Shown here in pieces: positions 38,559 to 61,617 of a DNA stretch of 64,000 nt. Source of the stretch: an uncultured Spirochaetota bacterium. GTDB lineage: Bacteria > Spirochaetota > B62-G9 > DRHN01. The notes beneath the pieces were generated by a model. The model saw only the letters and a program-made list of their open reading frames with translations. It made no database searches and was not told the DNA's origin. Location: the NCBI GenBank assembly GCA_964583615.1, contig CAZOWM010000003.1:30934-94933 (forward strand). Direction: 5' to 3'. The stretch's first letter is position 1. Every line of letters begins with the position of its first letter. A program made the translations under genes and the position numbers.

Positions 38559-39271
38559 ACCACACTCCTTTCATTATTATATTGTCGGGAATGAAAATGA
38601 CGAGCTTTTTATGCCTGTATTCGATATTTGTTCTGGCACTGTGCGACCAGGTGTTTCCCTCGATTCTCACCAGTATCGGAAAAACAACCTTTCAGCAGGG
38701 GCTGCTTCTCTCTTCTCTTTCTCTGCTCCTGCCGTTTTCGTCAGCCTTCGCAGGCCTTGCCGCGGACAGAATGGGGAAAAAAGCCATTCTCACAATCGGA
38801 GCGCTGTTTCTTGCGATTCCCTTTGCGATTTCCGCTCTGGTCGGCAATATATGGATACAAATCGGTGCAGTGGTCCTGTTCGGCGTGGGCATGGGGTCGG
38901 TGGAAGGCCAGGCCTCTGCACTGCTCACCGACATTCACCCGGGAAAAGAACGCTCGATTCTGAACCTCTCCCAGGTCTTCTTCTGCTTCGGTGCCGCAGG
39001 AGGTCCGTTTCTTATTTCTCTCGCCTTTCGTTTCATTCCCGATCTCGGTCTTCCCACCCTGCTTCTTGCATCTGCCGCTGTTGCCTCTTCTGTGGTTCTT
39101 GGGTTCCTTGTCCTCAAAGACAATGGCCACCCTCACGGAGCGGTTCCGCCTTCCGGTTTCAAACGAGTACTCCTCGACAAAACCGGCAGGCTTCTGCTCG
39201 TTTCGATGTTCCTCTACGTCACCGTCGAAAGAGGCATTGCCGGATGGATTGTAAAATACATGGAGGAACAA

Positions 39272-39288
39272 TTTTTTTTTTCAAAAAA
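39272..39288 (+). repeat. homopolymer pair T10-C-A6 inside the MFS cytoplasmic loop
   Basis: ...caa tttttttttt c aaaaaa cagc...; encodes FFFSKN. A slippage-prone tract 30 nt upstream of the G8 frameshift site. Confidence 0.6.
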
Positions 39289-39318
39289 CAGCAGCGCCCT
39301 TCAGTCTCACCGTGTATT

Positions 39319-39326
39319 GGGGGGGG
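39319..39326 (+). repeat. poly-G (G8) tract at the MFS frameshift site
   Basis: Both overlapping ORFs translate this tract (frame 1 L-G-G-D; frame 2 W-G-G-M), which fixes the run length at 8. Confidence 0.6.
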
Positions 39327-39737
39327 ATGGCAGTGAGCCGGATCATCGTGTGGCTGTTCTTTTCTCGCATGCATGACACTCATCTCCTCGGTATAGCACT
39401 CTTTTTTACCCTCATTTTCCAGGTATTGATCTTTACCACCACTGATCCTGCAATCGTACTGTTCTGTCTGTTCTTCTTCGGTTTCGGAATGGGAACGGTG
39501 TGGCCGACCATAGTTGCGATGGTCGGGGCACGTTTCAAAAAATCAAGCGGTTCTGCGGTGGGCCTCGTCGCTGCATCCGGTGCAGCGGCTGTTCCGGTAA
39601 TTCATCAGGTCATAGGAATTCTCTCACAGTAGCGGTTTTTCGGGCTAAGGACCTCGCTCTTTGGACTTACAGTTATAACCGTACTCAATTTGTTCATCGT
39701 GTACAGGATCGGGCGCTGCCGGAAATGCGGTGCTGAT

Positions 39738-39768
39738 AGGCCTGAAACGGTGTAGGCCTGGTTTGATG
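39738..39768 (+). terminator. candidate terminator after the MFS pseudogene
   Basis: AGGCCU, a 10-nt loop, AGGCCU (palindromic 6-bp stem), followed by GGUUUGAUGU. Confidence 0.3.
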
Positions 39769-39792
39769 TCCACACGAAAAATATCTTCGCTT

Positions 39793-41271
39793 TCAACCTT
39801 CGCCGTAGACCACGTTCAGCGTTTCGAGAAGAATACTCCAGAATGTCTCCACACCCGGAATGTACACCATTTCATCAGGGGAGTGAAGTCCTCTCAGAGT
39901 CGGACCGATAGATATGGCGTCCATTCCTCCGCACTTTTCCTTTAAGACTCCGCACTCGAGCCCGGCGTGCACTGCCGTCACCTTCGGCTCTTTTCCCGTG
40001 ACCTTTCGTATTGCCTGTGCAGCGCATTTCGCAAGCGTGGAGTCCGGATTAGGAGTCCAAGGGGCGTACCTGTTGTTCTGCAGGATTTCAGCCCTGAACG
40101 TTTTTGCAATCGCGCCGTGCACGTCGCTTATCCAGTCAAGCGCGCCGTCTTGGGAGCTTCTGTGGCTCATGTGAAGCGCAACTAGTTCGTTTTCGTGACT
40201 GACCGATGCGAGATTCGTCGATGTTTCCACCAGTCCCTCTATGGAGCGGCTCATGGAGAGCACACCATGCGGGACGATCATAAGAAGGTTAACGAGCGCT
40301 TCTGTTGAAGCCTCATCAAATATCCTCACGGGCGCACCGCAATCGACTGCATCACAGGAGAATCCCGGATCAACGTGCCTGTACTCGTTTTTCAGGTTCT
40401 CACAGTACTCCAGAAATGCACGGCGCGTCTTTTCTGCGTGCGTTTTTTCCACCGCCACTTTCGCACATGCCTCGCGGGGAATCGCATTGAGCTTGTCGCC
40501 GCCTGCGAGGGAAAAAAGCGAAAAGGAAAACTGTTTTCCGATGTGGAAGAGCGCGCGTCCCATGCATTTGAGTGCGTTTGCCCCTCCAAGATGTATCTCT
40601 GCTCCTGAATGCCCGCCTTTGAGTCCCCCGATTCTCAATTCCCCGAACCACATGCTGCTCGAAGGATCCCTTCGATCAATGGAGAGTGTCATGTGGCTGT
40701 CCTTTCCGCCTGCACACCCGATATAAATCACACCCAGGTCTCCTGTATCGAGGTTGATCAGCATCTTTCCTGCAATCATTGAAGGATCCAGTTCGAATGC
40801 CCCTATCAGGCCGATCTCCTCATCAGTTGTGAAGAGGCACTCAAGAGGCCCCGTGTTGAGCGTTTCGTCTTCGAGCACCGCAAGCATTGCCGCGACTCCG
40901 ATACCGTTGTCCGCCCCCAAAGTGGTGTTTTCCGCCTTCACCCATTCGCCTTCGATCCTGAGAGAGATGGGGTCTTTCATAAAATCGTGCCTGCTTTCTC
41001 GGTTCTTCTCGCACACCATGTCAACATGACTCTGAAGCACCACCCGCGGCATATGTGCCATCGCCCGTGATGCAGGTCTGATGAGCACGATGTTGGAGGC
41101 GCTGTCTTTTTTGAACTGAAGATTCCGCTTCCTCGCAAAATCCTCGATAAAACGTATTACCCTCTCTTTATTCTTCGAGCACCGCGGGATACGGGAGAGC
41201 TCTTCGAAATACCACCAGAGCCTTTCCGGCCTGAGTCGGTTTGTCGCGTGTTGCATCCGTTTCTCCATCAT
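39793..41271 (-). CDS. pepD: aminoacyl-histidine (Xaa-His) dipeptidase, M20 family
   Basis: 492 aa. HVDMV, GADNGIG, TTDEE(I)G metal ligands and a PepD-like C-terminus (HAGLECG...GP...HSPDE). Confidence 0.85.
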   Translation of the reverse strand: MMEKRMQHATNRLRPERLWWYFEELSRIPRCSKNKERVIRFIEDFARKRNLQFKKDSASNIVLIRPASRAMAHMPRVVLQSHVDMVCEKNRESRHDFMKDPISLRIEGEWVKAENTTLGADNGIGVAAMLAVLEDETLNTGPLECLFTTDEEIGLIGAFELDPSMIAGKMLINLDTGDLGVIYIGCAGGKDSHMTLSIDRRDPSSSMWFGELRIGGLKGGHSGAEIHLGGANALKCMGRALFHIGKQFSFSLFSLAGGDKLNAIPREACAKVAVEKTHAEKTRRAFLEYCENLKNEYRHVDPGFSCDAVDCGAPVRIFDEASTEALVNLLMIVPHGVLSMSRSIEGLVETSTNLASVSHENELVALHMSHRSSQDGALDWISDVHGAIAKTFRAEILQNNRYAPWTPNPDSTLAKCAAQAIRKVTGKEPKVTAVHAGLECGVLKEKCGGMDAISIGPTLRGLHSPDEMVYIPGVETFWSILLETLNVVYGEG

Positions 41272-43436
41272 TCAAGATTACTGAACTGTATCGTGTAGAG
41301 CTTGTGATAGATACCCTTTTTCTTGAGAAGCTCTTGGTGGGTGCCCTCTTCCACGATTCTTCCCCCGTCGAGAACGATGATCTTGTCTGCATGTTGTATC
41401 GTTGAAAGCCGGTGGGCAATGGCGATCGACGTCCGGCCTTTGGTGATGTGCGTGATAGCATCCTGGACCAGCTTTTCCGTTTCCGTGTCTATGCTTGCCG
41501 TTGCCTCATCGAGAACAAGAATCGAAGGGTCAAAATAGAGCGCGCGTGCGAAACTTAAAAGCTGGCGCTCTCCTGCGGAAAATGTGGAACCGCGCTCCAT
41601 TACCGGTTCATCCTCCCCTGAGGGAAGCCCCTCAATAAATCGGTCAATATGGGTCAGCCTGCACACCGTCCGAAACCACTCTTCATTAAAAAAGCTTCCG
41701 AGTATGATGTTTTCCTTCACTGTCCTTGAAAAGAGAAATACATCTTGCATCACGGATATGATGTTCTTTCTGAGTATCCTGAGTGGAAACTCTGTGATTT
41801 CGACACCGTCAATGAGAATCTTCCCGCTCTGAAGCGGATAGAATCTCGCCAGCAGGTTGATAATCGTGGTTTTCCCAGCACCCGTTTCTCCAACGATCGC
41901 CAGGGTCTTCTTTGGATCGATGCTGAAAGACACTCCCTTGAGTATCCACTCGCCCGCATTGTAGGAAAACCACACATCTTCAAACTCGATCTTTCCGCTG
42001 AATCTCTCAGCCTCTTTATTCCGGAGAACAGTTGTTTCTGCGCGCCCGGGTGCTTCTTTTCTTTTTTCTCTTCCGCTGAGTTCATTGAGCGCATCCGTCT
42101 TCAGAATGGACAGTATCTTTTCACCTGCCGCATTGGCGCTCTGCATGATGTCGAATTTTTCTGAAAGGTCCTGTACCGGTGCAAAAAACCGCTCAACATA
42201 GGCAACAAACATCACAAGAATACCGTATGAGAGGGTTCCCGCACCGATCCCGCGTGCACTGAAATAGATCACCGCGGCAATGGAAAACCATCGAAGAAAA
42301 CCGATAAGCGGTCTGAACACGGCATAGGTATAGAGCTGCTTGAGCTGAGCGCTGTATACCTCTCTGTTCTTCGTTCTGAAATTTGACAGATTCTTTATCT
42401 CCTGCACAAAAATCTGTATGATGCGTATTCCGGTAATCGTTTCGTTGAGAAAGCTGTTGAGCTCGGAAATCTTCGACCGGATCAGCCTGTAGGCGCTTCT
42501 GACCTTTATCCTGAAAATGATAGTAATAAGAACGACAAAAGGAAAGGAAATCGAGACAGCAAGGGCAAGTCTGAAACTGGTAAAAAACATGACGGCTGCG
42601 ATTCCAAGCATCATGAGTATGTCCTGAAAAAGCGTGACGAGCACCGATGAAAAGAGCTCATTCAGGATCTCAATATCATTCGTCACCCTTGTCACGAGTT
42701 TCCCGATCTTGTTTCTGTCGTAGTATGAGGTTTCGAGACCGATGATGTGGGAGAAGAGATCGTCTCTGAGATCCCTCATCGCACGCTGAGAGAGCTTCAT
42801 GAGCAGCATGATCTGCGCGTAGGAGGCCGCAAACTGTACAAGGAGTACGAGCACAATTCCGATGAAATAGTGCAGTATACGGGTAAAGTCAAGCGCACGG
42901 AGCTCCGCGATCTCTCTCACCGTGAAGCGTTCGAGCGCACGTGATTCAATGAGGTACACCGAAGTGCCGTATGACAGAGCATTCCCCTCGATGATGAGTC
43001 CTTCGAGTTTTTTTTCGGAAACGCTTTCAAGCTCCGGGGATTCTATCAGCACGTAGCGTTCTTTCGAGAGTACCCCCTGTGCCTGCATACCTTCTATCTC
43101 ATCCCTGGAGTAATAATTGAGTTGGGACTGGAACAGGAACTCATGCCTGTCATCGAGTCGGATTCCATGTCCTCCGGATGAATCGAGGGCCGCTTTTTTA
43201 TTCTCCTCGGACGAGCTCTCGGAGGTCAGGATCCTGCCTGTCTTGAAGATATACTGGTCAACAATGGTTTTGAGCACGTAGGGAACGAGCAGATTTGCTG
43301 CAGTAATGACGAGCACGAATGCGAGTGAAATGAAGAGGTACTTTCTGTAAGTAAAAATATACCGAAAGAGGAGCCTCAGCACTTCTCTGTTGTAAAGCTT
43401 TCTGTTTGCGGTATCTTTCTGATCATAGTCGTTCAT
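41268..43436 (-). CDS. ABC exporter, fused permease/ATPase subunit B, with ~150-aa extracytoplasmic insert between TM1 and TM2
   Basis: Six-TM exporter domain plus NBD (Walker A GETGAGKTT, signature FSAGERQ, Walker B LVLDEATAS). Long hydrophilic loop after TM1. Start at ATG 43436, 10 nt after the upstream partner. Confidence 0.8.
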   Translation of the reverse strand: MNDYDQKDTANRKLYNREVLRLLFRYIFTYRKYLFISLAFVLVITAANLLVPYVLKTIVDQYIFKTGRILTSESSSEENKKAALDSSGGHGIRLDDRHEFLFQSQLNYYSRDEIEGMQAQGVLSKERYVLIESPELESVSEKKLEGLIIEGNALSYGTSVYLIESRALERFTVREIAELRALDFTRILHYFIGIVLVLLVQFAASYAQIMLLMKLSQRAMRDLRDDLFSHIIGLETSYYDRNKIGKLVTRVTNDIEILNELFSSVLVTLFQDILMMLGIAAVMFFTSFRLALAVSISFPFVVLITIIFRIKVRSAYRLIRSKISELNSFLNETITGIRIIQIFVQEIKNLSNFRTKNREVYSAQLKQLYTYAVFRPLIGFLRWFSIAAVIYFSARGIGAGTLSYGILVMFVAYVERFFAPVQDLSEKFDIMQSANAAGEKILSILKTDALNELSGREKRKEAPGRAETTVLRNKEAERFSGKIEFEDVWFSYNAGEWILKGVSFSIDPKKTLAIVGETGAGKTTIINLLARFYPLQSGKILIDGVEITEFPLRILRKNIISVMQDVFLFSRTVKENIILGSFFNEEWFRTVCRLTHIDRFIEGLPSGEDEPVMERGSTFSAGERQLLSFARALYFDPSILVLDEATASIDTETEKLVQDAITHITKGRTSIAIAHRLSTIQHADKIIVLDGGRIVEEGTHQELLKKKGIYHKLYTIQFSNLE

Positions 43437-43446
43437 ACTCTGCACG

Positions 43447-45246
43447 TTATATCCTTTTATCCTCAAGCTGCTGCAGCTCGAAAAGCGATCTGTAGTACCC
43501 TTCCCCGGCAAAAAGCTCCGCATGGGTGCCCTGCTCCGCGATCCTGCCGTTATCCAGAACGAGGATGCGGGTGCAGTCCATGATGGTTGATACCCTGTGT
43601 GATATGATGAAAATGGTCCTTCCCTCCATCTCTTTGCGAATGTTCAAAAGAATCTCTTTTTCCTTTACTGCATCCACCGCAGAGAACGCATCGTCAAGAA
43701 CGAGGGTCCGGGGGTCTTTGAAGAGCGCCCGGGCGATGGAGATGCGCTGTTTCTGTCCCCCGGAGAGAGTAATCCCCCTTTCCCCCACGATTGTCTCGAA
43801 ACGGTCGCCGAACTCCATTATCTCGTCATATATGCCGGTGAGCCGTGCGACCCGTCCGATTTCTTCATCATCGTAGCCGTTGTCGAGCCCGAATGCGATG
43901 TTGTTCCTGATGGTGTCGGAAAACAGAAACGGGTCCTGCGGTACATACCCGATAAAGCCTCTTAAAACTGCAAGCGGATATTCATGAATCACTATATTGT
44001 CGAGAAAGATCCGCCCGTGCGCAACCGGAAAAAGCCTGAAAAGCAGAGAAACGAGAGTCGATTTACCAGAACCGGGCCTTCCCATGATCCCCAGTGAGCT
44101 TCCCGCAGGAACCGATAGATCGATGTGATCGAGCACCGCCCTCTTTTCACCGGGGTACATAAAAGTAAGGTCCTTTATCTCGATTTTTCCTCCGATCTCA
44201 ACGGAAGAGACAAGCGCCGCTCCTCTGTCGACGATATCCGTTTTCGTATCGAGGAGCTCCAGGATGCGCTTTGAGGAAGCAATTCCGCGCTGCAGGAGAT
44301 TGAAAACCCAGCCGATTGCAATTACCGGCCAGACAAGGAGATTGATATACATGGCAAAGGAAATAAACTCTCCAAAGCTCAGCGAACCTGTGATCACAGA
44401 TCTTCCCCCGACAAGATAGAGAATTGCAAGAGACAAATTGGCAAGAAGTGTTATCGAGGGAAAGAACAGCCCCCAGACATTTATGAGCTTGAGATTTTTT
44501 TCCACATAGTCTTCGCTCTTTTCGGCAAATCCCGCTATTTCATGTTCTTCCTGAGCAAACCCCTTGACAACCCGTATGCCGGAAAATGCCTCCTGCGCAA
44601 CCGAGGATATCCCGGCAAACGTTTCCTGAACCGCCTTGAACCGTCTCTGAATAAGAGGCCCGAAACGGGCTATCATGAAGAGAATTCCGGGAAGGGGGAG
44701 AACGGCAAATACGGTGAGCCGCACGTTGATGGTGAGCATGAAAAAGAGGCTCAAGGTTCCCATGAACACCGCATCCGTCAGTGCAATAAACGACGGACCT
44801 GTTGCCATGCGAATTGCATTGACATCATTGACCATAAGTGCCATGATACTGCCGGTTTTCGACTTGTTGAAGTAGGTGAAGTCGAGACCCTGGAGGTGGG
44901 TGAACATGTCCTCCCGCACCTCCTTTTCGATTTTCCGCGCGCTCCCGATAATAAAGAGCCTCCAGAAAAACCGCAACACCACCATGCCCAGGGCGAGTCC
45001 AACAATGAGCGCGGTATTTCTCGATACGAGGGAACTCGAGAAAGCATTTTCCCCAAGCATATCAATAACCCTCTGTATCACCCTCGGAATGACGAGCTGA
45101 AAGAGATCCACAACCATGAGCACAACAACTCCAGCAGCAACACTCAACTTATGGTTTCCCACGTAGGAAAGCATGAACCGCACCGCGCTCTTCCGCCCTG
45201 TTTTCTCCTCTCTGTTCCGCTTTGTTCTCCGCTCGACGGTTTTCAT
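43447..45246 (-). CDS. ABC exporter, fused permease/ATPase subunit A
   Basis: 599 aa. Type I exporter TMD plus NBD (Walker A GRPGSGKST, signature LSGGQKQR, Walker B LVLDDAFSAVD). Heterodimer partner of the downstream subunit. Confidence 0.85.
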   Translation of the reverse strand: MKTVERRTKRNREEKTGRKSAVRFMLSYVGNHKLSVAAGVVVLMVVDLFQLVIPRVIQRVIDMLGENAFSSSLVSRNTALIVGLALGMVVLRFFWRLFIIGSARKIEKEVREDMFTHLQGLDFTYFNKSKTGSIMALMVNDVNAIRMATGPSFIALTDAVFMGTLSLFFMLTINVRLTVFAVLPLPGILFMIARFGPLIQRRFKAVQETFAGISSVAQEAFSGIRVVKGFAQEEHEIAGFAEKSEDYVEKNLKLINVWGLFFPSITLLANLSLAILYLVGGRSVITGSLSFGEFISFAMYINLLVWPVIAIGWVFNLLQRGIASSKRILELLDTKTDIVDRGAALVSSVEIGGKIEIKDLTFMYPGEKRAVLDHIDLSVPAGSSLGIMGRPGSGKSTLVSLLFRLFPVAHGRIFLDNIVIHEYPLAVLRGFIGYVPQDPFLFSDTIRNNIAFGLDNGYDDEEIGRVARLTGIYDEIMEFGDRFETIVGERGITLSGGQKQRISIARALFKDPRTLVLDDAFSAVDAVKEKEILLNIRKEMEGRTIFIISHRVSTIMDCTRILVLDNGRIAEQGTHAELFAGEGYYRSLFELQQLEDKRI

Positions 45247-45398
45247 GAGTAATGCTCTTCCTCATCGCATATAAAAACACACTTCATAAAATAACAACAT
45301 TGGCGTTCTGAAAGGCAGAAGTTTCTTTGCTTTTCTCCGTTTTCGGGACTATTTTACACCCTTGCGTTTCCATGGATACACTGCAAAGAAGGTGCAGA

Positions 45399-46553
45399 AT
45401 GGAGAAAAAAAAAGTCATTACACTCGGAGTCATGCACTTCTTTCTCGATATGCACATGAGTTTTTTTCCGATCTACTTTGTCATCGCACAGCTCGATCCC
45501 ACAACAGCTGCGCTCATTATTTCTGTCTCCGCGTTTGTCGGAAACATCCTTCAGCCGGTCATGGGATACGCTTCAGACAGGCTGCACAGAAAGCTCCCTC
45601 TGTTTGTGGGAATGCTCATCACCGCGGTCTCGATGTCAATGATCGGACGCACTGTCCAGTACGCTCCTCTCTTTTTCCTTGTGCTCATGGGGCATCTGGG
45701 TTCCTCTCTTTTTCATCCCGCAGGAGCGCATGGGTCGAGTATCGCAGGTGTGACAAAAAAAGATGCAAGCTTCGCGGTCTATTCCACGCTTGGTTTCGTG
45801 GGTTTTTCTCTGAGCCAGCCCATTTTTTCCGCCTTTACCGGACGTTTCGGATTGGAGAATTCTTTCCTGCTTGCCATTCCGACGGTTTTGATCGCCTTTT
45901 TTTATCTTCTGATCTCAAATAAAGAGAACCAGGAGCACCATCAAACGCCGCACCTGAACGAAGTGGCAGGCCTTCTTCTTCGGCGGTTCAGAGCTGTGGT
46001 TCTGCTCTTTTTCATCATGGTTTTCCGCTCTGCATTCTTGTTCTCGATGAACTCGTTTCTCGCAAAATCCTTTGAAGAGTGGGGATATTCGCGGAGCGTC
46101 TACAGCATCGCCAACACATCTTTTTCAATATTCGGGTCTGCAGGGGTCTTTGCTGCGGGGCACCTTGCATCGATTATCAGGCCACGAAAACTGATGTTTT
46201 TCTCACTTGTCGGTTTTTTCCCTTTTTTTCTGCTTTTTCTCCATTTCGGCAGGCTCGGGAGCTTCGCCCTCACGTTCTTGCTGCTGTCACTTACAGGGTT
46301 CATCGTTCACGGCGGGCACGGAATGAACATCGTGATGGGGCACCGCATCGCACCGGAGATGATGTCGACCATCAGCGGCATTCTCATGGGGTTTGCCTGG
46401 GCCACCTCCCAGTTCGGCCCGATCCTGTGCGCAAACACAAGCGGGCTCTTTTCTGGAATCGGGGGAATTTCTTCGGGGCTTTTCGTGATGAGCTTTTTCC
46501 CTCTGGTTGCTGCCGCCCTTTCACTTTTTTTGCCAACAGAGGTTGACGGATGA
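45399..46553 (+). CDS. MFS transporter
   Basis: 12-TM MFS with the GYASDRLHRK motif A region. Start MEKKKVITLG preferred over the upstream ATG. Confidence 0.75.
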   Translation: MEKKKVITLGVMHFFLDMHMSFFPIYFVIAQLDPTTAALIISVSAFVGNILQPVMGYASDRLHRKLPLFVGMLITAVSMSMIGRTVQYAPLFFLVLMGHLGSSLFHPAGAHGSSIAGVTKKDASFAVYSTLGFVGFSLSQPIFSAFTGRFGLENSFLLAIPTVLIAFFYLLISNKENQEHHQTPHLNEVAGLLLRRFRAVVLLFFIMVFRSAFLFSMNSFLAKSFEEWGYSRSVYSIANTSFSIFGSAGVFAAGHLASIIRPRKLMFFSLVGFFPFFLLFLHFGRLGSFALTFLLLSLTGFIVHGGHGMNIVMGHRIAPEMMSTISGILMGFAWATSQFGPILCANTSGLFSGIGGISSGLFVMSFFPLVAAALSLFLPTEVDG

Positions 46554-46666
46554 CAGCTGCCGGTTCGTGTACTCATGATCCGAGACCTGCAATACAAATA
46601 ATTTCGGTTGTAATCTTTTGGGTAATACGGTACAATTTTTTATCTTTTCATAAAAAGGAGGGAGAA

Positions 46667-52355: not shown

Positions 52356-52386
52356 ATACTTTAAAAAATACTGTACATGCTGGTTT

Positions 52387-53577
52387 TTAACGCGCGGCTC
52401 CGCGATGAGAAAGACTTTTCAGCACCACGAGGATCATGACACCGATAGCAAGTGAAAGCGCAGAGCCAAAAAAGGGAAGCTTCCATGTGGAAGCAACATC
52501 GTGGAGATACCCTGAAAGGGGCACCCCGCATACCTGACCCATACCGTGAATCAGCGTTGCAGCTCCGAAAACCGTGCCCATCTCACGTTCCGTGACCTCG
52601 TCACTGATCAGAGAGGCGGTCACCGTTATTAGTCCAAAAAACACAAATCCGAAAAGGAAGGTGGAAAGATAGAACACCCACGCCATATTCCATGGAATGA
52701 TAACGATAACCGCGCCCGTTAAAATAGACGTTGCGCTCATCGCAACAACGATTTTATCTATTTTGTCTGAAAACCACCCCCAAAACAATCCGGAGTACAG
52801 TGAATTGAATCCGAACAGTGACCACATGATTCCGGCGGTTTTTTCGGAAAATCCGATCTCCGCAATCGCATAGACTCCGAAATAGGTCACGTAAATGATA
52901 TAGGAAAACCCGAGAATAAAGTAGTACAAGACCGTAAGGAAAAGCTTTTTGCGGGAAGCGAATACCCATGATATAGATTTCTTCTTTGTTTTTGCTTTTT
53001 GCCGGCTGATTTTCTTTTTTCCGTTTTTCATGAGCCGAAAGGTCACAATAAGCACAACAGTGTTGATGAGAGCCAGTACAAACCAGCTCACGCGGTATCC
53101 CAGACCGGGTGACACTGTAAGCAGCGGCGGAACGATGTACCCGCTGAGGACGATCCCCGCACCTGCACCTCCCATTACAATCCCGAAAGCGCTTCCTTTC
53201 TTCGAAACGGATTGATTGACAATTGCAATGAGGGGGATGTAGCTCCCTGCCGCACCGGCACCGAGCCCCAGAGTCGCGGCGAGAAGAACAGGATAGCTCG
53301 AAAAATACCCCAGACAAAAGAGCGATGCAGACACGAGCGCAATCGAATACTTCAGTGTCCTCTCTTCCCCTATCGCTTCCGAAATTCTTCCGCTCATGAA
53401 GGAATTGACCAGGTAACCCGCCACGATGCCCGTGCCGAGAAAACCCATCATGGTTGCGGACAGACCGAGGGCTTTCATCATATCAGGAAGAATGAGCGTA
53501 AAGACGAATCTGCCGAAAGCCATGGTTGTGAATTGAACAAGCCATCCGGCAAAAATCAGAGGGAGGTTTTTTCTCAT
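52387..53577 (-). CDS. MFS transporter
   Basis: 12-TM MFS. Start MRKNLPLIFAGW preferred (the longer ORF would overlap the upstream gene by 94 nt). Confidence 0.7.
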   Translation of the reverse strand: MRKNLPLIFAGWLVQFTTMAFGRFVFTLILPDMMKALGLSATMMGFLGTGIVAGYLVNSFMSGRISEAIGEERTLKYSIALVSASLFCLGYFSSYPVLLAATLGLGAGAAGSYIPLIAIVNQSVSKKGSAFGIVMGGAGAGIVLSGYIVPPLLTVSPGLGYRVSWFVLALINTVVLIVTFRLMKNGKKKISRQKAKTKKKSISWVFASRKKLFLTVLYYFILGFSYIIYVTYFGVYAIAEIGFSEKTAGIMWSLFGFNSLYSGLFWGWFSDKIDKIVVAMSATSILTGAVIVIIPWNMAWVFYLSTFLFGFVFFGLITVTASLISDEVTEREMGTVFGAATLIHGMGQVCGVPLSGYLHDVASTWKLPFFGSALSLAIGVMILVVLKSLSHRGAAR

Positions 53578-53597
53578 AGGGAAAGATATCGTTCGAG

Positions 53598-55289
53598 CTA
53601 TACGACCTTTATACCCTTTATCTTGAAGATTGCGAGAAAGAGAACGTGCACCACAACAACAATCGCCACCACAATCGTTGACATCGCACATGCGCTTTCT
53701 ATGTATCCGTCATCGATGAGATGTATAATGGTAATCGAGGCAAGCTGCGTTTTCGGAGACACAAGGAATATGACCGCGCTGATCGTGACCATGCTCCTTT
53801 CGAAAAAGAACAGAATATTGTTCCAGAAACTGACTCTGCTCAACGGGAAGATCACCTGAAAGAACGATTTCGGGAGATCCGCCCCGAGAGATGTCGAGGC
53901 TTCGTCAATCGATTTGTCGATATTCTTCATGTTTGTCATTGTGGAAAGCATACCAAGGGTGAAGTTTGCCACAATAATGTTGAGAATCACGATGGAAGCC
54001 TTGTAATAGAGCCAGTTCACACGAACGAACGCAAGGATGTAACCGAGCCCGAGAACGAGCCCCGGTATTGCGGCTGGAAGAACGGTAATGAGATAGAGCA
54101 GCTGGTTCCCTTTCGGTTTTCTTTTCTCTACGATGTACCCTGCAAAAAGCGTGAGCCATGCGCCGAAGAAGGCGACAATTAAGGAAATCCATAAACTGGT
54201 CCACACCACAGATATGGAACGCCCCCTGTGTGAAAAATTATAATGCCGCGTACTGAATGCGGTGAGCCATCTGAGGATCTGTTTTGATTGTCCGGCGCGT
54301 CCCCCCCATACATCAACGATGGATGTCCACAGTATTGCCCAGAAAATAATGATAATGGCACCGACAATGACGATTGAAACTGCGGAAAAAATCAGCTTTT
54401 TTGACCTGCTCGACGGCCTGATAAACGGCCGTGCGGCACCGCTTATCAGTGAGTAGTTCCTCTTTGTGAAATAGTTGTTGAGGACGAATGCAAGCACTGC
54501 AGGCACGAGAAGGATGACGCTTATCGTCGCACCCAGATCGAAACGCTGCATTCCTTCGACCTGCGTGTATATCTCCGTTGCGAGCACGTTGTAATCCCCC
54601 CCGATAACGATGGGGTTTCCGAAATCGGTGATGGTCAGATTAAACGCGAGTGCGGCGGCAGAAAAAATTCCGTACCGCGCGGATGGTATGGTCACCTTCC
54701 AGAATACCTTGAGCGCTCCTGCGCCGAGAGACTCGGCCGCTTCATTCAGGCGTGCATCAACCGCGGAAAGAGTGGTAATCAGTATGAGGAGCGCATAGGG
54801 AAAGCAATAAAAAAGTTCTGATATGATGATACCGGTCGGACCATATATATCCCACTTCCCCCCAAGCCAGTTCGTCACAAGCCCGTTTCTTCCGAAAAGA
54901 GAGATCAGTGCGAGCGCCTGCACAACCGAAGGTGCCATAAGGGGAAGCGAGGACACCGCCTTGTAAAACGATTTCCCCCGAATCGTGGTCCTGGTCATTG
55001 CGTAGGCCATGAAAAACGCCATGATCGTGGTTATAAAAGTTGTCACTCCTGCAACGTACAAACTGTTGTAAAGAGACCTTCTGATCCGGGCTTTCCCGAA
55101 GTACTCTATGTAGTTCTGGAATGTAAACCCTCCCTCTGTCACAAAGCTCGATTTCAGTATCTGCGCGAGAGGCAAAATGAGGAAAATCGCAAAAAAAATT
55201 GCAAATATACCTACAATGATATACGCCACAGCCTGGTCAGGGAGAACCGTTTTTACGGGTTTTATCACAATTGCTTGATTTTCTTCCAT
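53598..55289 (-). CDS. ABC transporter permease with two fused permease domains (Fe3+/thiamine/spermidine-type)
   Basis: 563 aa, 12 TM, two EAA-like loops; FbpB/ThiP-type architecture. Confidence 0.8.
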   Translation of the reverse strand: MEENQAIVIKPVKTVLPDQAVAYIIVGIFAIFFAIFLILPLAQILKSSFVTEGGFTFQNYIEYFGKARIRRSLYNSLYVAGVTTFITTIMAFFMAYAMTRTTIRGKSFYKAVSSLPLMAPSVVQALALISLFGRNGLVTNWLGGKWDIYGPTGIIISELFYCFPYALLILITTLSAVDARLNEAAESLGAGALKVFWKVTIPSARYGIFSAAALAFNLTITDFGNPIVIGGDYNVLATEIYTQVEGMQRFDLGATISVILLVPAVLAFVLNNYFTKRNYSLISGAARPFIRPSSRSKKLIFSAVSIVIVGAIIIIFWAILWTSIVDVWGGRAGQSKQILRWLTAFSTRHYNFSHRGRSISVVWTSLWISLIVAFFGAWLTLFAGYIVEKRKPKGNQLLYLITVLPAAIPGLVLGLGYILAFVRVNWLYYKASIVILNIIVANFTLGMLSTMTNMKNIDKSIDEASTSLGADLPKSFFQVIFPLSRVSFWNNILFFFERSMVTISAVIFLVSPKTQLASITIIHLIDDGYIESACAMSTIVVAIVVVVHVLFLAIFKIKGIKVV

Positions 55290-55303
55290 TTCGGATATCT
55301 CCC

Positions 55304-56392
55304 TTAAGAAAAAATCAGAAAATCTTCCGGTGGAAAGTACAATTGTACCGTTTCTCCAGTTTTGAACATCGCTTTCTCAAAATCCTTCTCGGTGATGTCA
55401 ACAATCACATACTCATTGAACATGCTGATAATAGAGCGCACAATGACACCGAGGAAGGTCACGACATCAATGACTCCTTCCTTGACATTGGTCTTTTTCA
55501 GGCCAGAGGGAATTTTGGCCAAATTCTTGTAGAGGTGTATTTTCTCCGGTCGTATGGAGATCGATACCGCTTTCCGTTGTTGTGCTGAAAAATCGCGCGT
55601 ATCCCGGGAAAGTGCAAACTGGAGCCCCGTACTTTTATCCAGAAACATGTCCGCCTCGAGCTCCCCTTCGAAGAAGTTCGATGTTCCCACAAAATCCGCA
55701 ACGAATTTCGAATTTGGATTCTTGTAAATTTCTATCGGTTTATCCACCTGTTCTATATACCCATGATTCATGACGATCACCCTATCGGATATGGATAGGG
55801 CCTCTTCCTGGTCATGGGTCACATACACCATGGTGATCCCCAGATCCGTCTGCACGCGCTTTATCTCCGCCCTCAGGTTTACCCGTATCTTGGCATCGAG
55901 CGCGGACAGCGGCTCATCAAGAAGGAGTATCTGGGGAAAAGTGGCCAGAGATCGTATCAGCGCGACCCTCTGCTGCTGCCCGCCTGAAAGCTCTGGAGGG
56001 TATTTAAACTTCTGGTCTTCAAGGCCAACGAGATGAAGAAGCTCGTCAACCCGCCGGGACATCTGTGACTTCTCGACCTTTCTCATCTTTAACCCGAACC
56101 CGACATTTTCCTTAACCGTCATATGGGGAAACAGGGCGTACGATTGAAACACAATCCCAAAGTTTCTCCTCTGAGGGATGATGTCATTGATTACATCTCC
56201 ATCGTAGATAATTTTTCCGCTTGTGGGAATTTCAAACCCCGCAATCATTCTCAATGTCGTGGTCTTGCCGCATCCCGACGGGCCCAGGAAACAGACGAAT
56301 TCCCCCTCCATTATCTCGATGCTCATGTCGCGAACCGCAACAATCTTTTCAAATTTCTTCGTGAGCTTTTCAAGAATGAGATCCTTCCCCAT
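55304..56392 (-). CDS. ABC transporter ATP-binding protein (FbpC/PotA type) with C-terminal TOBE-like domain
   Basis: Walker A GPSGCGKTT, signature LSGGQQQR, Walker B LLLDEPLSALD. Confidence 0.85.
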   Translation of the reverse strand: MGKDLILEKLTKKFEKIVAVRDMSIEIMEGEFVCFLGPSGCGKTTTLRMIAGFEIPTSGKIIYDGDVINDIIPQRRNFGIVFQSYALFPHMTVKENVGFGLKMRKVEKSQMSRRVDELLHLVGLEDQKFKYPPELSGGQQQRVALIRSLATFPQILLLDEPLSALDAKIRVNLRAEIKRVQTDLGITMVYVTHDQEEALSISDRVIVMNHGYIEQVDKPIEIYKNPNSKFVADFVGTSNFFEGELEADMFLDKSTGLQFALSRDTRDFSAQQRKAVSISIRPEKIHLYKNLAKIPSGLKKTNVKEGVIDVVTFLGVIVRSIISMFNEYVIVDITEKDFEKAMFKTGETVQLYFPPEDFLIFS

Positions 56393-56464
56393 GAAAACCT
56401 CCGGGCATATGAAAGTTATTGCAGGCGCAGGACGCTCTCACCCTGCGCCGCATTTTTCAACCAA

Positions 56465-57514
56465 TTATCTGAGAAACAGGTCCTGCCAGTTGATGAGAAT
56501 ATCACCTCTGTTCGCCGCCTGCCACTCAAAGTCCATGGGAATGAGCTTGACATCTTCCAGACTGGGAAGATCGGGTCGCACTGGGGGTATCCCAGGTTTG
56601 GTAACTCCCACCTTCCACTTCGCGTACAGCCTCATGGCATCGTCGGAAATCGCCCAGTCAAGAAACTTTTTCGCATTGTTTGGATGCTTCGCCCCTTTCA
56701 TGAGCGCATTTGCCTCCAGCTCATAGGCGCTTCCCTCTGCGGGAAGCACCATTTCAACAGGCTTCCCCTCCTTTTTGAGGTTTGCAATAACGAATGCAAA
56801 AGACGCACCGATTACATACTCTCCCGCCGCAGCATACTTTGCAGGCCGCGAGCCGCTCTTGATGTACTGACCCATGTTCTTGTCGAGCTCCCCGAGAAAT
56901 TTCCACCCCTCGTTTTCCGCAATCGTCTTGTTCTTGTAGTCGGGGTCCCAGGTTTCGAGGACTCCTGCAACCATTAAAAATCCCGTGCCCGAGCTTGCGG
57001 GGTTCGGCATGATAAGGTGCCCCTTGTACACCGGGTTGGTCAGGTCCTGCCAGGAAGTGGGCATGGGCAGGTTGTACTCATTTAATTTCTCCGTGTTCAC
57101 ACAGAACGCCGCAAGATAGAGGTCAATGGCGTACCAGTAATCATTCGGGTCCTTGAACCGGGCCGGTATCTTGTCTCCGTCTGCAGGTACATAGGGTTCG
57201 AAAAACCCCCTGTCAGTAAAATCCATCAGATAAGTGACCGCCCACCCATACACCACGTCTGCCTGCGGATTCGCTTTTTCAGCGAGAAGCTTCGCACCGA
57301 CGACCCCGGTTGAGAAACGGGTCCAGCTGATGTCCAGTCCTGTCGCGACCTCTGCCGCACTGATGTACTCTTCCGTCTCATCCGTTTCCAAAGAGGTGTA
57401 CAGTATGAGCTCATCACCCTCATCGACCGCCGGCTCTTTTGCTTTTTCCCCTTCGGCAAAAAGCAAAAGAGGTACACACACCATCAACGCAACAAACAGA
57501 AAAACCTTTTTCAT
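56465..57514 (-). CDS. ABC transporter substrate-binding protein, family 1 (iron(III)/thiamine-like)
   Basis: Signal peptide MKKVFLFVALMVCVPLLLFA; SBP_bac_1/FbpA-like fold. Confidence 0.75.
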   Translation of the reverse strand: MKKVFLFVALMVCVPLLLFAEGEKAKEPAVDEGDELILYTSLETDETEEYISAAEVATGLDISWTRFSTGVVGAKLLAEKANPQADVVYGWAVTYLMDFTDRGFFEPYVPADGDKIPARFKDPNDYWYAIDLYLAAFCVNTEKLNEYNLPMPTSWQDLTNPVYKGHLIMPNPASSGTGFLMVAGVLETWDPDYKNKTIAENEGWKFLGELDKNMGQYIKSGSRPAKYAAAGEYVIGASFAFVIANLKKEGKPVEMVLPAEGSAYELEANALMKGAKHPNNAKKFLDWAISDDAMRLYAKWKVGVTKPGIPPVRPDLPSLEDVKLIPMDFEWQAANRGDILINWQDLFLR

Positions 57515-57741
57515 CTTTCTCCTCCTTAGTCTGATATATAGATGTCATACATAATAACTTATATTAATTATTTTACCTCCTTTTTTCTTAGTGTAAAAAT
57601 TCATTTTGTATTTGTTACTTTTATGTTAATTTGATCGTACTACGAAGCGGTGCGTTTGTGCAATATTTTATTTGTATAAACCTTGTATTTTATGAGAATA
57701 TTTTTGTAAGACAGCACAATACACAGTGAGAGGATTATATC
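57515..57741. promoter_or_regulatory. AT-rich divergent intergenic region between the iron-type ABC operon (minus) and phoU-like/pit (plus)
   Basis: 227 bp of strongly AT-biased sequence, flanked by two divergent operon starts. Promoters and metalloregulator/Pho operator sites are expected here, but none could be called confidently. Confidence 0.3.
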
Positions 57742-58395
57742 ATGGGTTTTTTTATCCATAAAAAAGAAAAACATATCGTCGAACTGATCAAACGTCACGT
57801 TGACACTGTAGTGGAAACCGTGTACACGGTGACTGAAGCATTGGGGCTGCTTCTTGAAGGGAAGAAAGATGAATCCGTAGAATATACGAAAAAGGTTCAC
57901 AAAAAGGAGCACGAAGCTGACATCATACAGCGGGAGATCGATATGGAAATGTTTGGAGGCGCATTCATGCCCTCGATACGGGAAAATCTCTTCATTACGG
58001 TCGACATCGTAGACAAAGTAGCGAACAGAGCGGAGAAGCTCGGTGATTTCATCACCCTCATCAGCCCCGATGTGCCGGCGGAGATAGTGAAAGATGTAAG
58101 AAAAATGGGCGAACTGACGTGTAAATGCGCAGAAAAGATGCGAGATGCAGTATACAGTCTCTTTGACAGCATGGAGGCGGTCCACGAGGATACCATTGAG
58201 ATCGAGCGCTACGAGACAAGGATCGACAAAGTTGCGTGGAAAATTCTTGACACCATATTTAAAAAACTTGATATCGAAAAATTTTCTCACCGAATGATGC
58301 TGAGGGAGATGATCATCCACCTGAGTTCCATCAGTAACAAGATAGAAGACGCGTCCGACAGGATCGACATTATCGCGCTGCGGCTGAAATCGTGA
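57742..58395 (+). CDS. PhoU-like phosphate transport regulator (DUF47 family)
   Basis: 217-aa helical protein immediately upstream of pit. DUF47 proteins are the usual partner of PHO4-type Pit transporters. Confidence 0.75.
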   Translation: MGFFIHKKEKHIVELIKRHVDTVVETVYTVTEALGLLLEGKKDESVEYTKKVHKKEHEADIIQREIDMEMFGGAFMPSIRENLFITVDIVDKVANRAEKLGDFITLISPDVPAEIVKDVRKMGELTCKCAEKMRDAVYSLFDSMEAVHEDTIEIERYETRIDKVAWKILDTIFKKLDIEKFSHRMMLREMIIHLSSISNKIEDASDRIDIIALRLKS

Positions 58396-58428
58396 GGGTA
58401 TATACCTCTCATACAGGCAAGGAATTCT

Positions 58429-59354
58429 ATGTTTCGTCTCATTTCCGGAATATACCTCGGCTGGGGGCGAATGATGCTGCAAACGTGTTCGGTACGGGTG
58501 TTGCTTCAGGTGTGGTGAAGTACAGAATAGCGATCATTTTGACCGCTGTGTTTGTTGTCTCGGGCGCGCTCGTGCAGGGTTCTCGCGGCCTGCATACGAT
58601 CGGCGCTCTCGCAGAAATGGACTTAAACACCGCATTCATCGCCTCTCTTGCCGCCGCGCTCACGGTAAACATCCTCACCGTTCTTGCGATTCCGGTTTCC
58701 ACTTCCCAGGCGATTGTCGGCGCGATCTGCGCTGTCGGCATCAGGGGAAGCGGTGTGCAGGTATCTGTACTCATCAAAGTGTTGGCAAGCTGGGTCATAA
58801 GCCCGATTGCTGCAGCATTCATCTCGTACGCGCTTTACCGGATACTCGGATCACTGCTCGAGGGTCGAATATCAAATGTGCGTGTATGGTCGATCTTCAT
58901 GAGAATCGGTTTCTACTGCGTTGGAATCTACGGCGCATACGCGCTCGGTGCGAATAATGTTGCGAATACGACCGGTGTGTTCCTCAGTGCGGGGATGCTC
59001 ACTCCTGCGGCAGCAGCGCTCCTGGGAGGCGTTTCCATCGGACTCGGCGTTTTAACCTACAGCAAAAAGGTGATGTACACCGTGGGGAAAAGAATTACCC
59101 GTATGAGCGAGTTCGCGGCACTGGTCGCCGTGCTCGGGCAGGATATAACTGTTCACATCTTTTCATGGGTCGGCGTGCCTGTTTCGACCTCGCAGGCAAT
59201 CGTCGGCGCCGTTATCGGGGTGGGGTATGTAAAATCGAGCAGGGAGATAAACTTTGATATTGTTGGAAAAATTTTTCTCGGGTGGATATTCACTCCTACC
59301 GCATCATTTTTCATTGCCTATTTCGCCCTCCTCCTGTTTTCACGCTTCTTCTGA
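58429..59354 (+). pseudogene. pit: inorganic phosphate transporter Pit (PHO4 family) with apparent 5' frameshift in a G5 tract
   Basis: From GANDAANVFGTGVASG onward the track ORF (58392..59354) is a complete PHO4 protein. The hydrophobic helix-1 start MFRLISGIYLGW is encoded from ATG 58429 (AAGGA RBS) in the +1 frame and meets the main frame only if the G5 at 58463-58467 were G6. Confidence 0.5.
58463..58467 (+). repeat. poly-G (G5) tract at putative pit frameshift site
   Basis: cggctgggggcgaat, read directly from the sequence; G6 would restore MFRLISGIYLGWGANDAAN. Confidence 0.4.
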
Positions 59355-59386
59355 AGCCTTTCTCAAAATACACCTACCCACAGGTA

Positions 59387-60307
59387 ATGAGATGGATTAA
59401 ATCAAATATATGTATTCTCGCATATCCTTATATACGCAGGCGTGCTGAAAGGGGAAAACCACTGGTTGTCGGGGTTCCCAAAGAAAGTTTTCCCGGAGAA
59501 ACGAGGGTTGCCCTTGTGCCGTCCGGGGTGCAGACTCTCGTCTCAAAGGGTATTGATGTGGTTCTTGAGACAGGGTGCGGTGTGGCTGCGGGATACACCG
59601 ACGAAGCATACAGAGAAAAGGGCGCAGAGTTCGTGAAGGTTCGCCGTGACCTGTTTCACGCGTCAAGTTTGGTTCTTCAGGTGCGGGGAGCGGGGGCAAA
59701 TCCGCAGGGCGCGTGTTTCGATCTCGATCTGATGCGGAAAAACCAGATACTCATAGGACTGCTCGATCCTCTCCATGCTCCTCACTGCCTTCAAACCTTC
59801 GTGGAAATGGATCTCGGAAACGAGGACACGGAAGCGGACGGCGGGTACGCCCGTGCGATGGATGAGGAGTTTTACAGAAAACAGCGCGAACTGCTTTCCC
59901 GCGAGATGGGGGACGCGGATGTGGTCATCACCACTGCTGCAGTGCCTGGTAAAAAGGCACCTGTGCTCATCACAGAGGAAATGGTGAAGCGAATGCAGAA
60001 CGGTGCGGTGATCGTGGACCTGGCCGCAGAACACGGGGGGAACTGTGAGCTCACGAAGCCTGTAAAAGAAATTGTGTTCGAAGGGGTGAAGATTGTCGGA
60101 CCGGTAAACCTTCCCGCCACTGTTCCCTATCATGCAAGCCAGCTGTACTCAAAGAACATCACCACATTTCTGACTTCTCTGATCAGGGACGGTAAGATCG
60201 ATCTTGACAGTGACGATGAAATCATGAAAGCCACGCTCGTCTCCAGAGACGGAGTCATTGTCCACGAAGATTTAAAAAAGAGTGTTGGGAAAAAAAATCA
60301 TGGATAA
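59387..60307 (+). pseudogene. pntA: NAD(P) transhydrogenase alpha subunit part 1 (PntAA) lacking the central NAD(H)-binding Rossmann core
   Basis: N-terminal (VGVPKESFPGETRVA...) and C-terminal (DGGYARAMDEEF...DVVITTAAVPGKKAPVLITEEMV...VDLAAEHGGNCE) blocks align to PntAA dI. About 95 aa including the GxGxxG segment are absent between ...CLQTF and VEMD... (around nt 59800). Confidence 0.6.
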
Positions 60308-60608
60308 CTTTACTCTTATACTTATGATATTCGTACTCGCCCTATTCGTCGGTTTCGAGATCATTACCAAGGTACCTCCCATACTTCACACTCCCCTCAT
60401 GTCCGGCTCCAACGTAATATCTGGGATCACGCTTGTGGGCGCAATTCTTTCAGCGGGCACCCAGAGGACCACCCTGACGATGATTCTCGGGTTCATGGCA
60501 GTGGTGTTTGCAACCGTCAACGCGGTGTGGGCAGTTTCGTTGCCTTTGCAAAGCTTCAGGGCATCATCACAGAGAAATCCGTGCGCTTCTGGGGAGACCA
60601 GTTCGTGA
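60300..60608 (+). pseudogene. pntA: PntAB (transhydrogenase alpha part 2) with the C-terminal ~20 aa replaced by out-of-frame sequence
   Basis: MDNFTLILMIFVLALFVGFEIITKVPPILHTPLMSGSNVISG... is a typical PntAB up to ...ATVNAV, then continues as unrelated WAVSLPLQSFRASSQRNPCASGETSS. Confidence 0.55.
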
Positions 60609-61348
60609 AGTTCTTCTTCCTCTGTGTTTCGGTCCTGCTCGGCGTGCTTCTCACCGTTCCTATCGGGGGAGCGGACATGCCCGTTGTTATCGCGCTGTTG
60701 AACTCCTATTCAGGCCTTACTGCAGCCGGAACCGGATTCGTTCTTTCCAATACGGTGCTCATCGGAGGCATCGGAAAAATAACGGAAATCACCCTTCCGG
60801 ACGACGTTTACGGAGAAAAAGTGAAAAGCACCTCGTCAGAAGAGGTGGCGATGCTTCTCAAGGCGGCCAGAAGAGTCGTATTTATTCCGGGATACGGCAT
60901 GGCGATCGCACGTGCTCACCACGCAGTACACGTGCTCTTTCAGGCACTGATCAATGATGGCATTGAGGTTGAATTCGGAATACATCCGGTTGCGGGACGT
61001 ATGCCGGGTCACATGAATGTGCTGCTCGCTGAGGAGAACATCCCCTATGACAGGCTGAAAGAAATGGATGTCATCAACTCAACCCTCGAGCAGACCGATG
61101 TTGCCATTGTGGTGGGCGCAAACGACGTGGTGAATCCTCTCGCCCGCGAGGATTCAGGAACTCCGATCTCTGGAATGCCGATCATCGAGGCAGACAAAGC
61201 GCATACAGTCGTTGTGATCAAGCGAAGCCTGAGCCACGGTTTTTCTGGAATCCCCAACCCTCTCTTTGCTGCTGAAAACACGCTCATGCTCTTCGGTGAC
61301 GGGCAGAAAATGATTCAAGAGCTCATCGACGCCTACAAGGAAGCATGA
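60527..61348 (+). pseudogene. pntB: PntB (transhydrogenase beta) missing its N-terminal ~140 aa (first transmembrane helices)
   Basis: ORF begins at a GTG inside pntAB with GSFVAFAKL (equivalent to E. coli PntB residue ~140). It then reads IGGADMPVV..., the membrane segment and a complete NADP-binding dIII (GYGMAIARAHH, HPVAGRMPGHMNVLLAE). No upstream in-frame PntB sequence exists. Confidence 0.6.
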
Positions 61349-61617
61349 TCAATGTGATGTTCGGTTACTACGAAGATCCACAACTTACCAAGAAATCATT
61401 CCGTAAAAGCTATTTCATGACAGGAGACAATGGCTCCGGAGATGCATTTTTATTTTTTCAGGTGATGAGGCCGTGTCTGCGAGAAGAATATACACACAGC
61501 AGTGCAGTCTATGAGTCAATGGTAGCGGAATTGATCGGTCGTTTCCCCTCAAAAAAGGTGGAGACGCACCGCTTCATGCTGCACACAGACGGAAAAAGCA
61601 TTGGAACAATCTTTTGA
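61345..61617 (+). pseudogene. remnant of an AMP-dependent synthetase/ligase (acyl-CoA ligase) C-terminal region
   Basis: Begins ...FGYYEDPQLTKKSFRKSYFMTGDNGSGDAFLFF, matching the GYxxxPExTxxxFxDGWFxTGDxGxxDxDGYLF block of adenylate-forming enzymes. Flanking sequence does not continue the family. Confidence 0.35.

Follow-up and report, generated by a model that had tools for sequence, protein, structure and literature searches.

Introduction

Deletogenic replication slippage, with deletions of 2–100 bp, was described in Sodalis (2016; PMC4948707), and the bias of bacterial pseudogene deletions towards multiples of three (3n) has been attributed to microhomologies that lie in phase (PMC6054270); Kuo & Ochman (2010; PMC2916853) treated young pseudogenes of bacteria and how they turn over. 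The present analysis concerns a 64 000-nucleotide stretch of contig CAZOWM010000003.1 from an uncultured, apparently sediment-type Spirochaetota bacterium (hereafter the window), in which two loci have very probably become pseudogenes recently in this species: a gene for a fucose-permease-like MFS transporter and the block DUF47–pit–pntAA–pntAB–pntB. Slipped-strand mispairing produced most of the lesions, acting on progressively larger repeats, namely a homopolymer (+1 T), a 7-bp tandem repeat (−7 bp) and dispersed direct or quasi-repeats of 10–17 nt lying 72–465 bp apart; the sole lesion of another kind is a G>T substitution that created a nonsense codon (TAG) in the MFS gene.

As in Sodalis (PMC4948707), a homopolymer indel, the loss of a unit from a tandem direct repeat and deletions whose ends lie in separate repeats, perfect or imperfect, are found together. 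Unlike in Sodalis, the deletions are larger (72–465 bp), the lesions affect two loci only, in an organism that appears to be free-living, and a genome-wide slippage-prone state was not seen in 21 kb compared with a sister species. Deletion lengths in multiples of three (318, 72 and 90 bp, and 465 bp in one haplotype) agree with PMC6054270, whereas the repeats (10–17 nt) and the deletions exceed the k-mers of 2–6 nt and the mostly small deletions considered there. The pseudogenes resemble those of Kuo & Ochman (PMC2916853) in being recent and species-specific, with a low ratio of non-synonymous to synonymous substitution rates (dN/dS) and few identifiable lesions, and differ from them in that one operon carries several hits, fixed across samples, in DNA that has still not been removed. 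Gene order and subunit split of the pnt genes are those of the split transhydrogenase PntAA/PntAB/PntB of Rhodospirillum rubrum and Thermus thermophilus (PDB entries 1F8G and 4O9U), from which the window copy differs by lacking the dI NAD(H) core, the end of PntAB, PntB residues 1–136 and two further membrane segments. The mechanism and the kind of event are already well known, and no new question is opened by them; the locus is an example, from a wild and apparently free-living population, of one operon collecting several repeat-mediated deletions soon after inactivation.

A first-pass annotation of the window had reported a cluster of at least six disrupted genes. That observation was largely real and is partly confirmed, with its details mis-described and its lesions over-counted: four of the six are real, the other two (an acyl-CoA ligase fragment and iorA) represent ancestral states, and the six reduce to two independent events, one in a permease gene and one in a DUF47–pit–pnt unit.

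Comparison sequences

The same-species set consisted of 17 metagenome contigs that were 99.8–100% identical to the window (L016, L026–L030 and L032–L042); they were recovered by a metagenome scan and by exact-protein look-ups. L031 was a second fetch of the JGI contig L026 and hence was not counted separately. The contigs originated from JGI 3300031275, 3300031358 and 3300031624 and from Logan SRR8556769, SRR8556772 and SRR9706179, apparently representing five samples and two assemblers (JGI and Logan); the pairing of JGI with Logan samples was deduced from common variants and matching contig coordinates. A literature search on the sample and run accessions gave no result. The case is chiefly of value as quality control: the apparent frameshifts and internal deletions of a sequence of the metagenome-assembled genome (MAG) type can be checked without reads by means of such same-species contigs from other assemblies, and here the check showed real gene decay.

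A sister species was represented by contigs L006–L015 (89% nucleotide identity), syntenic with the window over 28.6–49.7 kb, and the 21-kb syntenic block was compared with L007 by gene-by-gene codon alignment (n = 18 genes). The references for pit and pnt were the ENA contig L005, which is the closest relative (87–89% nucleotide identity), and L023. A scan of genome contigs gave only more distant DUF47–pit relatives, in the MAGs L001–L004 (73–74% identical), which were uninformative for pnt because no pnt genes follow their DUF47–pit pair. The relatives of the window come from environmental metagenomes and MAGs, and related sequences place the organism among the uncultured Spirochaetota.

The permease pseudogene

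38591..39755, + strand: pseudogene of an FHS/fucose-permease-like MFS transporter, with Pfam MFS_1 matches in two frames [intact orthologue of 385 amino acids (aa)]
39272..39281, + strand: T10 run with a +1 frameshift (relatives need T9; T10/T9 polymorphic in the population)
39630..39632, + strand: nonsense codon TAG, Glu in the alignment of relatives, at codon 345 of the L007 frame

Intact orthologues were found in P0121 (90% identity, 385 aa) and P0122 (together 384–385 aa and 86–90% identity), and the protein is 385 aa long in the sister contigs L006–L015. P0121 and P0122 read ...KYIEEQFFFQKT..YWGGMAVSR.., and the segment EEQFFFQKT in these two relatives requires T9 where the window has T10 (39272–39281). 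The gene is broken into two frames, as first annotated, but not at the G8 run (39319–39326) to which the frameshift had been assigned: this run encodes W-G-G in the correct downstream frame and was ruled out as the site by the relatives, which place the lesion in the T-run. Codon alignment to L007 gave exactly one +1 insertion (39272) and one in-frame stop, the TAG at 39630–39632, which the earlier list of lesions had missed. It arose from GAG (relatives have Glu at this position, SQERFFGL) and cuts off ∼40 C-terminal residues corresponding to the last hydrophobic segment.

Among the same-species contigs, L035 and L037 have T10 and L036 has T9; the TAG is present in all three. The T9 allele still stops at the fixed TAG and encodes 346 aa versus 385 aa. 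The NCBI protein P0124 (261 aa) is identical to the first MFS open reading frame (ORF) of the window, and an exact-protein look-up of P0124 gave no match.

DUF47 and pit

57742..58395, + strand: DUF47/PhoU_div gene, intact, first of the DUF47–pit pair (Pfam PhoU_div over its full length)
58429..59354, + strand: pit pseudogene of the PiT/PHO4 family (PF01384 match; native ATG out of frame)
58461..58467, + strand: lone remaining CTGGGGG unit (7-bp slippage deletion compared with L005)

The DUF47 product is 73–74% identical to those of L001–L004, and its gene carries one non-synonymous population variant, at 57833. An exact-protein look-up of the window DUF47 gave no match, likely because the population contigs differ by one residue.

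The native ATG of pit at 58429 (MFRLISGIYLGWG) does not share the frame of the conserved GANDAAN motif, whereas eight relatives read MFRL..G.YLGWGLGANDAAN (MFRL..GWGLGANDAAN) at the N-terminus. In L005 the corresponding DNA is GGCTGGGGGCTGGGGGCG, a perfect tandem of two CTGGGGG units; in the window it is GGCTGGGGGCG (58459–58469). The lesion is the loss of one unit from a 7-bp tandem repeat, which shifts the frame after codon 13. The frameshift reported earlier is thus real, although not as a one-base slip in a G5 run, a candidate excluded by the two units of L005 against the single unit of the window. The same 7-bp deletion was found in L016 (by its motif) and in L027 (where the site is the same as in the window). 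The native start and the first hydrophobic segment, which a functional PiT protein has in frame with the first GANDxxN motif, are here out of frame with it; the remainder of the PHO4 domain is matched throughout (profile positions 2–350 of 350). At 59272 the window has T5, and L016 and L027 have T4, which is a further segregating frameshift.

A GTG codon at 58392 overlaps the DUF47 stop codon (GTGA, 58392–58395) and has been in frame with pit since the 7-bp deletion. The pit ORF that it opens is 320 aa long, with the hydrophobic N-terminus replaced by a polar one.

The transhydrogenase genes

59387..60307, + strand: pntAA remnant of 306 aa versus ∼385–412 aa, lacking 106 codons (homologue alignment)
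59794..59807, + strand: junction of a 318-bp in-frame deletion, at the direct repeat ACCTT(C/T)GTG(A/G)AA
60300..60608, + strand: pntAB remnant, correct to about codon 75 and followed by a frameshifted tail (PNTB_4TM profile positions 2–70 of 85)
about 60525..60529, + strand: junction of the 463-bp pntAB/pntB deletion, with weak microhomology and out of frame
60529..61348, + strand: pntB remnant with a partial membrane domain and a complete dIII [NADP(H)-binding] domain (PF02233 in two stretches)
60636..60652, + strand: junction of a 72-bp in-frame deletion in pntB, at the quasi-repeat T(T/C)GG(T/C)GTGCT
60755..60764, + strand: junction of a 90-bp in-frame deletion in pntB, at the perfect repeat GTGCTCATCG

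All of the best 120 PntAA homologues listed are 373–443 aa long. The best of these, P0001 (89% identical over the aligned part), is encoded on L005, where the order pit (partial)–pntAA (412 aa)–pntAB (93 aa)–pntB (462 aa) is intact; the same genes are likewise intact in L023. Comparison of the pnt DNA with L005 revealed four deletions in the window, the remaining coding sequence being free of small indels, and the repeats at the deletion junctions are visible in the intact relatives. The deletions were mapped on the solved structures (PDB entry 4O9U_B for PntB) through L005, the alignments to 1F8G and 4O9U having E values of 1e-97 to 1e-113.

The 318-bp deletion corresponds to about residues 112–217 of R. 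rubrum dI, including GVGVAG. The in-frame loss of the Rossmann core of pntAA given in the first annotation is therefore borne out: the 106 codons that have gone include the NAD(H) Rossmann fingerprint GxGxxG of a functional PntAA, as GAGVAG. The deletion at the pntAB–pntB junction is also as reported (463 bp, at about 60525–60529); in its 463-bp or 465-bp form it takes PntAB from residue 76 together with PntB residues 1–136. Two pntB deletions had not been reported, that of 72 bp, which removes PntB residues of about 172–196 (a membrane segment), and that of 90 bp, which removes residues of about 236–265 (the last membrane segment). Owing to these three deletions the complete dII, formed by PntAB and the N-terminal half of PntB, is no longer present. 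The dIII domain is complete (PF02233 positions 263–455 of 456) and aligns without gaps to that of L005. With its NAD(H) site deleted, hydride transfer by the window Pnt would be impossible and the copy is predicted not to be a working member of the family.

The exact 306-aa PntAA product is encoded in L026, L027 and L028. The junction deletion is 463 bp long in three of the sequences (the window, L027 and L028) but 465 bp in L026, in which the absence of GT at 60525–60526 turns pntAB::pntB into an open fusion of 348 aa. The 72-bp deletion is common to L026 and L027 and the 90-bp deletion is present in L026; L027 has both up to its contig end.

The five genes DUF47–pit–pntAA–pntAB–pntB are contiguous on the same strand and probably form a single transcription unit, judging from the short pit–pntAA spacing (32–33 bp from the pit stop to the pntAA ATG) and from the lack of a terminator-like site in this gap. 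Their order, on one strand and with short spacers, is kept in three related lineages (the window, L005 and L023); in the more distant L001 and L003, pit occurs without pnt downstream.

Origin of the lesions and retained function

Full-length orthologues under purifying selection exist in close relatives both for the MFS gene and for pit and pnt (dN/dS 0.035–0.12), the lesions break the frame or remove an essential domain, and they are not specific to one assembly, as they occur in L016, L026–L028 and L035–L037 from several runs and two assemblers. A first inactivating hit would have rendered the rest of each unit neutral, allowing further hits to accumulate; the pile-up of lesions in one 3-kb stretch between intact flanking genes would follow from such neutrality. 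Lost with these genes would be the Pit-type, low-affinity route for taking up phosphate, the proton-coupled transhydrogenase acting between NADH and NADPH, and one permease for symport of sugar type; the losses matter locally for a reconstruction of the organism's metabolism.

The dN/dS values of pit, pntAA, pntAB and pntB were 0.10–0.145 between the window and L005 and 0.035–0.12 between L005 and L023, in both of which the genes are intact. In the pnt genes, amino-acid changes specific to the window are mildly in excess: they account for 34 of 89 nucleotide changes, compared with 24 of 105 along the L005 branch. The dN/dS of the broken loci, which the first annotation had proposed as a check, is not raised (0.10–0.15); this was interpreted as recent inactivation and not as retained function. 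Since dN/dS is still low, inactivation appears to be recent relative to the species split (dS of about 0.4).

Several points weigh against inactivation. None of the broken genes has a raised dN/dS (MFS 0.147, pit 0.14, pntAA 0.145, pntB 0.105), so that, on the sequences compared, the signs of relaxed selection would be limited to the population variants and the mild amino-acid excess in pnt. The L026 haplotype, in which four in-frame pnt deletions leave both ORFs open, could encode a retained product, and a Pit with a replaced N-terminus could be made from GTG 58392. Moreover, where one sample was assembled by both JGI and Logan, the two assemblies are not independent.

A functional remodelling, in which a trimmed PntAA and a PntAB::PntB fusion (a membrane anchor plus dIII) were selected for a new role and Pit is made from the GTG, is regarded as unlikely. 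All four pnt deletions of L026 are multiples of three, gene callers predict products of 306 and 348 aa (the latter with PNTB_4TM and PNTB) from it, dIII is complete, dN/dS is still low and the ORF from GTG 58392 covers the full PHO4 profile. In-phase spacing is nevertheless expected of repeat-mediated deletions: among exact direct repeats of at least 8–10 nt located 40–600 bp apart within the genes of the window, 58–61% are in phase, with a similar fraction in the pnt operons of L005 and L023, and four multiples of three out of four would arise with p of about 0.13 (three of the four deletions are multiples of three in the window itself). In-frame deletions as a sign of selection were rejected in view of this fraction and of the published parallel (PMC6054270); alone, they provide no evidence of retained function. 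The GT breaks the frame of the fusion in three of the four sequences that cover the junction (the window, L027 and L028), pit carries the further segregating frameshift at 59272, a protein with its NAD(H) site deleted cannot transfer hydride and no PntAA shorter than 373 aa occurs among the 120 homologues listed. A narrower proposal, that the pnt deletions sculpted a new membrane-anchored NADP(H)-binding module from the 306-aa PntAA, devoid of an NAD site, and the 348-aa fusion, made up of a few membrane helices and an intact dIII, with the GT indel as an on/off switch, is very improbable.

Neighbouring genes and genome reduction

The region 38–64 kb is rich in transporter genes, as had been annotated and as the ORF listing and Pfam scans confirmed. 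It contains the split MFS gene, an M20 peptidase, two ABC exporters and a second MFS gene; an Opp-type system of a binding protein, two permeases and two ATPases, then a third MFS gene (MFS_4); an ABC importer (fused permease, ATPase and binding protein), DUF47 and pit, pntAA, pntAB and pntB; and a small ORF, PEMT-like and Usp genes and a TRAP DctM gene. In the left half are housekeeping and flagellar genes and genes of serine/glycine metabolism, all with full-length domain matches, in agreement with the earlier description of the genes at 0–37 kb as intact.

In the 21-kb block compared with L007, 17 of the 18 genes are intact (dN/dS 0.06–0.25) and only the MFS gene is broken; the intact genes include two ABC exporters, another MFS gene and the first Opp genes. 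The remaining Opp genes, the iron/polyamine-type ABC system, the second MFS gene and TRAP DctM look complete, and the other transporters match relatives end to end or cover their profiles fully.

The first annotation had considered that the lineage is shedding transport and energy functions in a host-associated, reductive lifestyle. Genome-wide reductive evolution of this kind, with the window as one patch of it, is improbable, slightly more so than functional remodelling. The five broken genes among roughly 55–60 (an estimate), plus two older relics, are on the high side for a free-living bacterium, and the functions lost all belong to transport or energy metabolism; however, the five represent only two mutational targets, 17 of the 18 genes compared are intact under purifying selection and many other transporters are complete. 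Domains of insertion sequences, transposases or integrases were not found in Pfam scans of the window ORFs, the titles of related MAGs name no host and one relative is a 3.5-Mb genome record. Within the window there is no support for a reductive lifestyle, and the lesions represent ordinary gene decay.

Two in-frame insertions relative to the sister species leave their ORFs open: 24 bp at 45234, near the 5′ end of the gene for a 599-aa ABC exporter, and 9 bp in total at 37844–37855 in a TrmO-like gene.

Variation within the species

Each large lesion was present in all same-species contigs spanning it, and every checkable lesion recurs in separately assembled contigs of the species, from several runs, which bears out the statement of the first annotation that at least part of the damage is biological. 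More distant relatives do not have identical lesions: the MFS gene is intact in L006–L015, and pit and pnt are intact in L005 and L023.

Within 19.8 kb covered there are 13 variable sites, eight of which lie inside 4.1 kb of pseudogene DNA (binomial p = 0.0015; coverage-weighted p = 0.015). The eight comprise three frameshifts, four non-synonymous variants and one synonymous variant; the frameshifts are T9/T10 in the MFS gene, T4/T5 in pit (59272) and the presence or absence of GT at the pntAB::pntB junction (60525). Extra frameshifts are thus still segregating among co-occurring strains, and haplotypes coexist within one sample, in which L016 differs from L026 at positions 59250 and 59272. 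Contigs break or disagree at polymorphic homopolymers, as at the end of L034 (39267) and in the L016/L026 overlap (59231–59398); this suggests that co-occurring strain variants fragment assemblies exactly at decaying genes.

It is highly unlikely that the MFS T-run, the pit T-run and the GT at the pnt junction are contingency tracts switching expression by phase variation. All three are length-polymorphic in the population, one of them within a single sample; yet no tract length restores a complete ORF, as even with T9 the MFS gene runs into the fixed TAG, the second 7-bp unit of pit is irreversibly lost and the pnt genes lack essential domains, and the tracts are short (T4/T5, GT ×1–2) and in mid-gene.

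An assembly or sequencing artefact, with homopolymer miscalls and mis-joins in otherwise intact genes, was rejected as equally remote on account of the same lesions, plus segregating extra frameshifts, in the same-species contigs: two lesions do lie in homopolymers (T10 at 39272–39281 and the T-run variant at 59272), L036 (T9) and L037 (T10) differ in apparently one sample assembled twice, and L034 stops directly before the T-run at 39272–39281, but the deletions of 7, 318, 463/465, 72 and 90 bp and the TAG are not homopolymer errors and recur across runs, and the window is identical to L034, L029, L030 and L032 over the aligned stretches. The systematic homopolymer and indel problem that had been suspected was not borne out by these identities (100% over all 8540 bp of L034 and over 1857, 1857 and 1706 bp of L029, L030 and L032, respectively); scattered homopolymer differences are absent between the window and the same-species contigs, and only one of the 22 long homopolymer runs of the window (A/T ≥ 8, G/C ≥ 7) has a frameshift.

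Older relics and iorA

61345..61617, + strand: relic similar to the hinge of an acyl-CoA (ANL) ligase, from weak PDB matches
8210..9988, + strand: iorA, intact and full-length (comparison with the sister species and CP070841.1)
9985..10140, + strand: N-terminal fragment of an EamA-type transporter, 51 aa (EamA profile positions 2–46 of 135, E 0.005)

The ORF annotated as an acyl-CoA ligase remnant is present, with a weak identity: its PDB matches are nearly all to residues ∼350–450 of ANL ligases at E values below significance (0.3–2), and a Pfam scan gave no match. It is not a recent lesion, since the same truncated form directly follows pntB in the sister contig L005 (it is absent from L023), and the fragment predates the split between the window and L005.

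The description of iorA as lacking iorB is true, but no lesion is involved. No iorB adjoins iorA in the window, in the sister locus L043 or in CP070841.1. An iorB upstream of iorA was ruled out, that ORF space being occupied by a nitroreductase gene on the other strand. The iorA of the sister species is 92% identical and is likewise directly followed by asd, and the 66%-identical iorA of CP070841.1 (a 3.5-Mb Spirochaetota record) is flanked by a nitroreductase gene and csrA. Given this shared arrangement, the missing neighbour reflects ancestral gene order and no disruption.

The 51-aa EamA ORF and the stop codon of iorA overlap. In L043 this fragment recurs with a further 17 bp deleted; it is an older relic common to the window and the sister species.

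Other features

A single ORF at 18349–21708 (− strand; about 1093–1120 aa) combines an SHMT domain, a partial GcvT-like segment and a complete GcvT within a serine/glycine cluster (aminotransferase, DUF1015, 2-hydroxyacid dehydrogenase, GcvH and GcvPA/PB). End-to-end alignments at 41–51% identity were obtained with dozens of 50%-cluster representatives (1030–1340 aa); these full-length homologues rule out a read-through artefact and establish a conserved fusion family. No tRNA genes were found in the window, and the only Rfam family in it is 6S (SsrS) RNA, the gene for which (4824–5014, + strand) matches over its full length with 76.8 bits. The ABC exporter subunit at 41268–43436 (− strand) has about 190 extra N-terminal residues, without a Pfam match, before ABC_membrane, and the sister species has the same 722-aa form, aligned without gaps.

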